Assembly: GCF_056746865.1 (NCBI RefSeq)
Contig: NZ_CM163382.1
DNA: 64,000 nt
Reading direction: 5' to 3' (one strand)
The position numbers were made by a program, and so were the translations under genes. Positions 9,737 through 13,745 of this stretch are shown here, in pieces. Every line of letters starts with the position of its first letter. Position 1 is the stretch's first letter. Below the pieces are notes generated by a model. The model made no database searches, was not told where the DNA came from, and worked only from the letters and a program-made list of their open reading frames with translations.

Positions 9737-12700
9737 ATGGCGAATTTCTTTATTGATCGCCCCATTTTTGCCTGGGTGCTGGCAATCCTGTTGTGTCTGA
9801 CAGGTACCCTGGCGATTTTTTCATTGCCCGTTGAACAATACCCCGATCTCGCGCCACCGAATGTGCGAGTGACCGCTAACTATCCCGGCGCATCGGCCCA
9901 GACGCTGGAAAACACCGTGACCCAGGTTATCGAGCAAAATATGACCGGCCTCGATAATCTGATGTATATGTCGTCTCAGAGCAGTGGCACCGGCCAGGCA
10001 TCTGTCACTTTAAGTTTTAAAGCAGGCACCGATCCGGACGAAGCCGTGCAGCAAGTACAAAACCAGCTGCAATCAGCCATGCGAAAGTTACCGCAGGCGG
10101 TGCAAAATCAGGGCGTGACGGTGCGTAAAACCGGCGATACCAACATTCTGACCATTGCCTTCGTCTCTACCGATGGTTCGATGGATAAACAGGATATTGC
10201 CGATTACGTTGCCAGTAATATTCAGGATCCGTTAAGCCGCGTGAATGGCGTCGGGGATATCGATGCCTATGGTTCGCAATATTCCATGCGTATCTGGCTG
10301 GACCCGGCGAAACTCAACAGTTTCCAGATGACGGCTAAAGATGTCACTGATGCCATTGAGTCACAGAACGCGCAGATTGCGGTTGGGCAACTTGGTGGTA
10401 CGCCTTCCGTCGATAAGCAGGCGCTCAACGCCACCATTAACGCCCAGTCACTGCTGCAAACACCAGAACAGTTCCGCGATATCACCTTGCGGGTGAATCA
10501 GGACGGCTCAGAGGTAAGGCTGGGCGATGTCGCCACCGTCGAAATGGGGGCGGAGAAATACGATTATCTTAGCCGCTTCAATGGTAAGCCAGCCTCCGGG
10601 TTGGGGGTAAAACTGGCCTCCGGCGCGAACGAAATGGCGACAGCGGAGCTGGTGCTCAATCGTCTTGACGAGCTGGCGCAGTATTTCCCGCACGGACTGG
10701 AATACAAGGTGGCGTATGAAACCACCTCGTTTGTTAAAGCCTCCATTGAAGACGTGGTGAAAACGCTGCTGGAAGCTATCGCTCTGGTTTTCCTCGTTAT
10801 GTATCTGTTCCTGCAAAACTTCCGCGCCACGCTGATACCCACTATCGCCGTGCCGGTGGTGTTGATGGGAACCTTCTCCGTACTTTATGCCTTCGGTTAC
10901 AGCGTCAACACCTTAACCATGTTCGCGATGGTGCTGGCGATCGGTCTGCTGGTGGATGACGCCATCGTGGTGGTGGAAAACGTCGAACGTATTATGAGTG
11001 AGGAAGGACTCACTCCTCGCGAAGCCACACGTAAATCGATGGGGCAGATCCAGGGGGCACTGGTCGGGATTGCGATGGTGCTTTCGGCGGTATTTGTACC
11101 AATGGCCTTCTTCGGCGGCACCACCGGTGCCATCTATCGCCAGTTCTCTATTACCATTGTTGCGGCGATGGTGCTGTCAGTATTGGTAGCGATGATCCTC
11201 ACTCCGGCTCTGTGTGCCACGCTACTTAAGCCACTGAAAAAGGGTGAGCATCACGGGCAAAAAGGCTTTTTTGCCTGGTTTAACCAGATGTTTAACCGCA
11301 ACGCCGAACGCTACGAAAAAGGGGTGGCGAAAATTCTCCACCGTAGCCTGCGCTGGATTGTGATTTATGTCCTGCTGCTTGGCGGCATGGTGTTCCTGTT
11401 CCTGCGTTTGCCGACGTCGTTCTTGCCACTGGAAGACCGGGGCATGTTTACTACCTCGGTACAGTTGCCCAGCGGTTCAACCCAACAACAGACCCTGAAA
11501 GTCGTTGAGCAAATCGAGAAATACTACTTCACCCATGAAAAAGACAACATCATGTCGGTGTTTGCCACTGTTGGTTCTGGCCCTGGGGGTAACGGGCAAA
11601 ACGTGGCGAGAATGTTTATCCGCCTGAAAGACTGGAGCGAACGCGACAGTAAGACCGGCACCTCGTTTGCCATTATCGAGCGTGCAACGAAGGCGTTTAA
11701 CAAGATTAAAGAAGCTCGCGTTATCGCCAGCAGCCCGCCAGCAATTAGCGGTCTTGGTAGTTCTGCAGGTTTTGATATGGAGTTGCAGGACCACGCTGGA
11801 GCGGGTCACGAGGCGCTGATGGCAGCACGTAACCAGTTGCTGGCGCTGGCAGCGGAAAACCCGGAGCTAACCCGTGTGCGCCATAACGGCCTCGACGACA
11901 GTCCGCAGTTGCAGATTGATATCGACCAGCGTAAAGCTCAGGCGCTGGGCGTTGCTATCGACGATATTAACGACACACTGCAAACCGCCTGGGGTTCGAG
12001 CTATGTGAATGACTTTATGGATCGCGGTCGCGTGAAGAAAGTCTATGTGCAGGCAGCTGCGCCGTATCGCATGCTGCCAGATGACATCAATCTCTGGTAT
12101 GTCCGAAATAAAGATGGCGGCATGGTGCCCTTCTCTGCTTTCGCGACCTCACGCTGGGAGACAGGCTCGCCGCGTCTGGAACGCTATAACGGTTATTCTG
12201 CAGTTGAGATTGTTGGGGAAGCCGCACCGGGGGTCAGTACCGGTACGGCGATGGATATTATGGAATCGTTAGTGAAGCAGCTGCCAAACGGCTTTGGTCT
12301 GGAGTGGACGGCGATGTCGTATCAGGAGCGGCTTTCCGGCGCGCAGGCTCCGGCGCTGTACGCCATTTCCTTGCTGGTGGTATTCCTGTGTCTGGCGGCG
12401 CTGTATGAAAGCTGGTCGGTGCCGTTCTCGGTAATGCTGGTCGTGCCGCTGGGGGTTATCGGCGCGCTGCTGGCAACCTGGATGCGCGGGCTGGAAAACG
12501 ACGTTTACTTCCAGGTGGGCCTGTTAACGGTCATTGGTTTATCGGCGAAAAACGCCATCCTGATCGTCGAGTTTGCTAACGAGATGAACCAAAAAGGCCA
12601 CGACCTGTTTGAAGCGACGCTCCACGCCTGCCGTCAGCGTTTACGCCCGATTCTGATGACCTCGCTGGCATTTATCTTCGGCGTATTGCCAATGGCAACC

Positions 12701-12850
12701 AGCACGGGTGCCGGTTCCGGTGGTCAGCATGCGGTGGGTACTGGCGTAATGGGCGGGATGATTTCGGCCACTATTCTGGCTATTTACTTCGTGCCGCTGT
12801 TCTTTGTGCTGGTGCGCCGCCGCTTCCCGCTGAAGCCGCGCCCGGAATAA
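9737..12850 (+). CDS. acrD: RND-family aminoglycoside/multidrug efflux pump AcrD
   Basis: 1037-aa ORF ([19 protein letters not shown]...); typical 12-TM RND transporter; length matches AcrD. Confidence 0.95.
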
Positions 12851-12861
12851 GCAATAAAAAA

Positions 12862-12889
12862 GGCGACATGCCAATGTGTCGCCCTTTTC
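12862..12889 (+). terminator. rho-independent terminator downstream of acrD
   Basis: GGCGACA-tgccaa-TGTCGCC hairpin followed by CTTTTC, 12 bp after the acrD stop. Confidence 0.6.
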
Positions 12890-12948
12890 AACTTTCCGAT
12901 TAAGAACCTGCTCAGCAGGTTCTTGCTGTTTGTACTTTGTCTCAGGAA

Positions 12949-13008
12949 TTACTTACGAAGCATAACTTCGATAAAGTCTTTCCAGTTCCCCAGTTCACGT
13001 TCAATCAT
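12949..13008 (-). CDS. ypfM: small protein YpfM (19 aa)
   Basis: Minus-strand ATG 13008 to TAA 12949 translates MIERELGNWKDFIEVMLRK; recognised from memory as K-12 ypfM; too short for the ORF track. Confidence 0.7.
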   Translation of the reverse strand: MIERELGNWKDFIEVMLRK

Positions 13009-13370
13009 AACAACCTCTCTTATAATTATGGGTATTCTACGGAAACAATATACCGTGGTGAAGCTAATTTACTCGATTGCTGCGATGACTACCTCCGGGG
13101 GACAAACCTTATGTAAATACTATGGTCCTGCGGTGATGATTTGTATGTGATACACAGCAACATTTCGAGATATTCATACGGCATCTAATACTGATTTAAT
13201 TCTGGTTAAAATACAGACAGATAACAAGATGAATATTCTTAATGTTTACGTTAAAAATGTTTAATATTATTTAATAGTTGTTAATTTGAATACTTCGATA
13301 ATGTTATATTTCCTGATAATCATTTGCAGGCAAAATGTTTTCACTCTTAAATGAGTATTTATTCTCATAA

Positions 13371-13745
<375 letters not shown>

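Follow-up and report, generated by a model that had tools for sequence, protein, structure and literature searches.

In the window, by which we mean the whole stretch of 64,000 nucleotides analysed here, a 19-codon reading frame lies on the minus strand between the convergent gene acrD and the gene yffB, which starts at 13389. The locus contains the following features.

9737–12850, plus strand: the convergent neighbour acrD, coding for an RND efflux permease; a 1037-aa ORF that RefSeq names acrD.
12850–12969, minus strand: match to Rfam RF01409 (STnc250), taking in the last six ypfM codons, the 3′ UTR and the terminator.
12855–12890, both strands: intrinsic terminator consisting of an A-run, a GC-rich stem (GGCGACA/TGTCGCC) and a U-run, common to acrD (plus) and ypfM (minus).
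12902–12924, both strands: perfect palindrome AAGAACCTGC-TCA-GCAGGTTCTT, which forms a hairpin within the 3′ UTR of ypfM; in the plus-strand sense this is the second terminator-like hairpin to follow acrD.
12949–13008, minus strand: ypfM coding sequence, ATG plus 18 sense codons plus TAA, with the product MIERELGNWKDFIEVMLRK followed by the stop.
12957–12969, minus strand: small stem-loop GAAG-UUAUG-CUUC (codons 14–18), from the STnc250 consensus structure.
13014–13020, minus strand: Shine-Dalgarno sequence AGAGAGG, read from the sequence, with 5 nt between its GAGG and the ATG.
13034–13062, minus strand: sigma-70 promoter TTCACC-17-TAGAAT, from a promoter scan.
13150–13400, no strand: AT-rich part of the divergent ypfM/yffB intergenic region, GC 21–29%.

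Read on the minus strand from 13008 to 12949, the codons are ATG ATT GAA CGT GAA CTG GGG AAC TGG AAA GAC TTT ATC GAA GTT ATG CTT CGT AAG TAA. The product has 19 residues and the minimum of the ORF lister was 20, so that ypfM is missing from its output. The original prediction had foreseen this, and its name for the 60-nt frame downstream of acrD agrees with the translation, with RefSeq and with the NCBIfam model NF033843. A length of 19 codons is by itself statistically unremarkable; 43 ORFs of at least 20 aa overlap one 2.5-kb span around ypfM. What speaks for a gene is therefore its conservation, its expression signals and its published detection.

An 801-nt stretch around the frame is 100% identical to several E. 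coli chromosomes, whose RefSeq features there are acrD, ypfM and yffB; the E. coli name for 12949–13008 (minus) is ‘protein YpfM’, gene ypfM, between acrD and yffB. The K-12 small-protein annotation, proposed at the outset as a check, has the same gene: in MG1655 ypfM is b4606 (YP_001165325.1; 2590807–2590866, minus strand, 60 nt; RefSeq name ‘uncharacterized protein YpfM’), and it is like that of the window in strand, length, neighbours (acrD > < ypfM, yffB >) and its distance of 99 nt from acrD. Over 12840–13169 the window and K-12 differ at three bases, none of them inside the ORF. The window alleles A12917, which makes the palindrome perfect, and C12884, in the terminator stem, are minority alleles, and ypfM itself is without difference from K-12. 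Searched with the peptide, to which one X was added to reach the 20-residue minimum of the tool, the equivalog model NF033843 (small_YpfM) scored 59.2 bits (E = 2.4e-16), with residues 1–19 on profile positions 1–19 of 19. This is above its curated cut-off of 33 bits, and the gene has the minus-strand position between acrD and yffB that also marks members of the family.

Within E. coli the gene is nearly universal, a 220-nt ypfM stretch being found in 5424 of 5426 complete genomes. The identical protein, WP_001386977.1, is encoded by five of six sampled strains, and the sixth has an IS1 insertion. In this strain, Res13-Sevr-PER06-05-b-A (NZ_CP062815.1, locus L085, 2599–3352), IS1A is inserted at the 5′ part of ypfM, and the annotated ‘YpfM’ is a hybrid that retains only ...NWKDFIEVMLRK; ypfM appears to be dispensable there. 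According to PMC2515195, ypfM was first predicted by Wassarman et al. 2001.

Conservation was assessed in 80 species-representative loci anchored on the neighbour yffB, a sample with no bias towards ypfM. The original prediction had staked its reading on conservation of the frame in related enterobacteria, and 71 of the 80 loci keep it at the matching place and strand, in genera that include Escherichia, Citrobacter, Enterobacter, Klebsiella, Kosakonia, Buttiauxella and Cedecea and extend as far as Dickeya (MIEIELNNWKSFIDAMLRK). Together with E. coli these loci supply 53 unique ORF sequences, all of which start with ATG and 52 of which have their stop at codon 20, using TAA, TAG or TGA. Summed column entropy is 3.36, 3.84 and 11.75 at codon positions 1, 2 and 3, respectively, and mean pairwise dN is 0.057 against a mean dS of 0.807 (ratio 0.07). 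Entropy, stop position and dN/dS all have the form that purifying selection gives to a protein-coding gene, and from these comparisons we infer that the frame is a translated gene under strong purifying selection.

The sole locus to have lost the codon-20 stop is that of Lelliottia nimipressuralis (L034, 1052–1111; …MLRNDL…), which has either a C-terminally altered, extended product or a decaying copy of the gene.

The peptide has been detected directly. Intact YpfM was observed by top-down mass spectrometry at 100% coverage and with its N-formyl-Met retained; DIA and targeted PRM found it too, as had a large proteome study before them (PMC12529367). By targeted mass spectrometry, YpfM and AzuC were found in all replicates of low-Mn2+ minimal medium and were not detected under the other conditions tested (PMC12529367). 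AzuC (28 aa) is, like YpfM, short, independently transcribed and overlooked by classical annotation. No sequence relation was found between YpfM and small soluble E. coli proteins of the AzuC type, and the likeness is one of kind of gene, not of family.

Short ORFs such as this are very common, and ypfM might accordingly have been a chance ORF of a terminator-rich intergenic region, annotated by habit. That account is refuted by the retention of the frame across the yffB-anchored loci, the codon-position entropy, dN/dS and the detection of the peptide; moreover, the frame has a dedicated promoter and ribosome-binding site that are conserved over more than 20 genera. We give the chance account practically no credence.

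Genomic SELEX reported TTCACC/TAGAAT as a constitutive RpoD promoter for ypfM, with H-NS noted in the spacer (PMC3946193). A 38-species alignment shows conservation among genera of the −35 element (CTTCAC), the −10 element (GTAGAAT or GTATAAT), the ATG and the leader ATAATAATAAGAGAGG, with nearly invariant AGAGAGG columns. The sigma-70 promoter at 13062–13034 would drive a short minus-strand transcript that, as read from the sequence, would start near 13027 and end near 12854, for a length of ∼175 nt. It would comprise a 5′ leader of ∼19 nt with the strong Shine-Dalgarno AGAGAGG, the 19-codon ORF (13008–12949) and a 3′ UTR of ∼95 nt holding the palindromic hairpin, and would end at an intrinsic terminator flanked by an A-run and a U-run. 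With such a run on either side, convergent acrD transcription should be stopped there as well.

In Salmonella the ypfM ortholog gives a stable short mRNA of ∼220 nt on Northern blots, dependent on growth phase (PMC2515195), a size that does not match the ∼175 nt estimated for the E. coli RNA. Gel estimation or a different start site could account for the mismatch; the Rfam consensus and the Citrobacter loci suggest that the Salmonella 3′ UTR is probably even shorter than that of E. coli.

Taking identity, conservation, expression signals and peptide detection as a whole, we hold with high confidence that the best explanation of the 19-codon frame is ypfM, a free-standing monocistronic small-protein gene of the Enterobacteriaceae. 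Its surroundings were less exactly described by the original prediction, which placed the gene between two hairpins. Both hairpins lie 3′ of it, between the acrD stop and the ypfM stop, that is, in the ypfM 3′ UTR. The first was described as the acrD terminator; it is indeed a terminator, but the description understated it, as the hairpin is common to ypfM and acrD and serves both directions.

On the minus strand the hairpin at 12855–12890 has the form GAAAAGGGCGACA-loop-TGTCGCCTTTTTT, and only on this strand was it flagged by a terminator scan, with 14 pairs followed by TTTTTTATT; the minus-strand tail after the hairpin is UUUUUUAUU. On the plus strand, where the scan left it unflagged, the U-run is shorter, of four bases followed by CAAC. 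The predicted folds have energies of −18.7 kcal/mol on the minus strand and −13.8 kcal/mol on the plus strand. In a comparison of 38 species, 96% of the cells of the helix are paired, and of its 12 pairs 8 have changed on both sides, as in GGCGAC/GTCGCC versus GGCGGC/GCCGCC. With a GC-rich stem, a direct U-run and compensatory changes, it has what is looked for in an intrinsic terminator; the hairpin is a classic terminator, able to work in either direction. With C12884 in place of T, the stem of the window contains an A.C mismatch in its plus-strand form and a G.U wobble in its minus-strand form.

The second hairpin is the palindrome at 12902–12924, whose perfection the original prediction gave exactly as it stands in the window. 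As DNA it has arms of 11 + 11 nt with 1 nt between. Nine close inverted repeats were found in the window, of which it is the longest with perfect, separate arms. Its folds are of −14.3 (minus) and −15.2 (plus) kcal/mol. The perfect allele, with A at 12917, occurs in 569 of the 5426 complete E. coli genomes, Nissle 1917 included; 4716 of them (∼87%), K-12 included, have the one-mismatch allele with G at this position. G12917 forms a U.G wobble in plus-strand RNA (−14.5 kcal/mol) and a C.A mismatch on the ypfM strand (−9.6 versus −14.3).

Outside E. coli, E. whittamii and E. albertii keep the arms with A:T in place of C:G, so that the CTGC/GCAG of E. coli has its compensatory counterpart in the CTGA/TCAG of E. 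whittamii. As an RNA helix conserved across genera the palindrome was rejected beyond Escherichia, the homologous columns being 38% paired. Unrelated hairpins occupy the interval elsewhere, such as GTGTGA...TCACAC in Enterobacter and ATCCC...GGGAT in Citrobacter.

The palindrome would most plausibly be a structural element of the 3′ UTR that doubles as a back-up terminator or insulator separating the two convergent genes and takes no part in the coding function. Its main job may even be on the plus strand, where it would be a further terminator, or an insulator, against acrD read-through running antisense into ypfM; we entertain this tentatively, with somewhat less than even confidence. The plus-strand scan flags it as a terminator-like hairpin with the tail CTGTTTGT, and the hairpin at 12855–12890 is the weaker on just this strand, in its U-run and in its fold. 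The common G12917 allele, too, preserves a pair on the plus strand and loses it on the minus strand. Yet the U-tract of the palindrome is poor, the polymorphism at 12917 is possibly just neutral, and the hairpins that other genera have there are without obvious plus-strand U-tracts. Since the palindrome is terminator-like on the plus strand and the common allele keeps the plus-strand wobble, a role as back-up terminator or insulator for acrD seems at least as plausible as one in the stability of ypfM mRNA.

The transcript is also in Rfam under another name. The STnc250 model scores 34.9 bits (E = 2e-5) in the window, below its gathering score of 42. At the orthologous place it scores 78–92 bits in three Citrobacter loci, 42–43 bits in E. 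albertii and E. whittamii, and 37.5 bits in E. coli K-12. The lower E. coli score arises largely because the spacer is longer, with 37 nt of 3′ UTR where the consensus has 13 nt; this 37-nt stretch holds the 5′ arm of the palindrome. Salmonella STnc250 is the positional ortholog of the ypfM transcript, and the paper describing it identified it as ypfM mRNA (PMC2515195). Matches to CsrC in Rfam, at ∼15 bits against a gathering score of 61, reflect merely the terminator hairpin and were rejected.

The match to an Rfam sRNA family is a reason to suppose that the locus is a purely non-coding sRNA in which the 19-codon frame is incidental. The in-ORF stem GAAG/CUUC is part of the STnc250 model, and codon 15, at its first base, and codon 17, a CTT, look constrained at the nucleotide level. 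Variation in ypfM nonetheless has the three-base periodicity of coding sequence, along with the low dN/dS; the stop keeps its position even though the stop codon changes; the Shine-Dalgarno and ATG are invariant or nearly so; and the peptide has been seen by mass spectrometry (PMC12529367). The codon-position pattern and the peptide detection in effect refute a purely non-coding locus, which we judge to have almost no chance of being correct.

The in-ORF stem is 94.7% paired and nearly invariant in the 38 species, which makes it inseparable from coding constraint, and it was set aside as uninformative. Codon 15 encodes V, D, G or A, with bases 2 and 3 free, and its first base is G in 50 of the 53 unique ORFs; at codon 17, 40 of the 53 use CTT, a codon not otherwise preferred. 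Both patterns fit the GAAG/CUUC stem, and hint at a constraint at the RNA level inside the ORF.

A coding ypfM RNA could at the same time be a dual-function RNA, that is, an Hfq-bound regulator that also base-pairs through its 3′ UTR. Rfam lists the Salmonella ortholog as ‘STnc250 Hfq binding RNA’, which overstates what was shown: a 4-fold enrichment in Salmonella Hfq co-immunoprecipitation that amounts to tiny read numbers, 24 versus 6 (PMC2515195). The 3′ UTR is laid out as the usual sRNA 3′ module, with a stem-loop followed by an A/U-rich spacer and then a terminator whose U-run is long, and most genera have some hairpin just before the terminator, of differing sequence. The sequence from the stop codon to the terminator is, on the other hand, poorly conserved across genera, with no shared single-stranded motif evident; a search for a conserved single-stranded seed there found no well-conserved block in the 38-species alignment, which is unreliable in this variable stretch. 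The literature searched mentions no target and does not describe ypfM as a base-pairing RNA. We regard the dual function as improbable; a riboregulatory second function of the ypfM RNA is possible but unsupported.

Returning to the small-protein reading, the peptide has 8 charged residues of 19, a mean Eisenberg hydrophobicity of −0.12 and no membrane-spanning stretch. It lacks the membrane segment expected of a type I toxin or small membrane protein, its pattern being amphipathic rather than hydrophobic. The hydrophobic moment at 100 degrees is 0.546, a value reached by 3% of shuffles. I2, L6, W9, F12, I13, M16 and L17, all invariant or nearly so, form one helix face, and the positions that vary among genera, 4 (R/H/T), 8 (N/Q/H), 11 (D/S/E) and 15 (V/G/D/A), are on the opposite face, at 280–340 degrees on the helical wheel. 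This arrangement suggests that YpfM is a single amphipathic alpha-helix.

Type I toxins are typically hydrophobic membrane peptides. That ypfM is small and has a stand-alone short transcript would suit such a toxin or the leader peptide of an attenuator, but the composition just described is against the former and no antisense RNA gene is annotated at ypfM; nor is there a gene downstream on the minus strand for a leader to control, the transcript meeting instead the terminator shared with convergent acrD. Both readings, which we consider wholly improbable, were rejected on gene layout and peptide composition.

On the small-protein reading, the product is a real, translated and soluble 19-residue peptide held under strong purifying selection. 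Most characterised bacterial small proteins work by binding a larger partner. By analogy, and from the conservation of its hydrophobic face, the YpfM helix probably docks through that face onto a larger partner protein.

Synteny offers further context. Of the 71 species loci that bear ypfM, 69 have the acrD 3′ end next to it, and in 77 of the 80 yffB-anchored loci ypfM and adjacent acrD are jointly present or jointly absent. Eight loci lack both within 1.5 kb upstream of yffB: L047, L066 and L069 in Enterobacteriaceae, and L070–L072, L074 and L075 in Yersinia, Lonsdalea and Erwinia. The only locus with acrD and without ypfM is L081 (Erwinia endophytica). From this distribution the two genes seem to have been gained or lost together. 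No match to narQ was found beside yffB in the loci without acrD and ypfM, which leaves a simple joint deletion of acrD and ypfM next to narQ unsupported.

The two Dickeya loci L073 (223–588, minus strand) and L078 are the only ones with ypfM upstream of yffB and without acrD. In that of D. oryzae (L073), the sole Dickeya locus scanned with Rfam, a cspA thermoregulator 5′ UTR (RF01766, 119 bits) lies beyond ypfM. Downstream of dapE, E. whittamii and E. albertii have the REP-derived naRNA4 (RF02564) at 82–93 bits (L002, 3235–3311; L004, 3266–3346).

On its other side ypfM is separated from yffB by an unusually long spacer of ∼380 bp (13010–13388), the yffB-proximal half of which is very AT-rich, with GC down to 21%. 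The AT-rich region that the original prediction put beside ypfM is real, but its near edge is ∼140 nt upstream of the start codon, and directly before the ORF the GC content is 36–45%. A MarA ChIP peak lies in the ypfM<>yffB spacer of Salmonella (PMC10268841), and the literature records use of the E. coli ypfM/yffB intergenic region as a host-source marker. The long AT-rich spacer, the H-NS noted in it, the MarA peak and the host-source marker use suggest more regulation than a ‘constitutive’ promoter implies.

The clues to the context in which YpfM acts are weak ones, namely the synteny with acrD and with yffB-dapE, the detection at low Mn2+ and the Salmonella MarA peak. More speculatively, it could be either that the ypfM RNA has a dual function, its lineage-specific 3′-UTR hairpin and terminator forming an Hfq module that regulates other mRNAs, or that YpfM is functionally tied to the AcrD pump or to the divergent yffB-dapE-ypfN operon; we think it unlikely that one or the other of these holds.

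The gene was known already: it has an annotation and a curated family model, both its RNA and its protein have been detected, and Rfam lists it under its other name. The additions made here are small, namely how frequent the palindrome alleles are, how the two hairpins differ between the strands and how conservation is distributed over the helix faces, and the current understanding of ypfM is unchanged by them. The locus serves mainly as a quality check, in that a reading of the raw sequence caught a 19-codon gene overlooked by mechanical ORF lists. YpfM is among the shortest verified E. coli proteins, and for a search for its partner the handles are the invariant hydrophobic face, the synteny with acrD and yffB, and the conserved promoter, ribosome-binding site and terminator as against the lineage-specific 3′-UTR hairpin.
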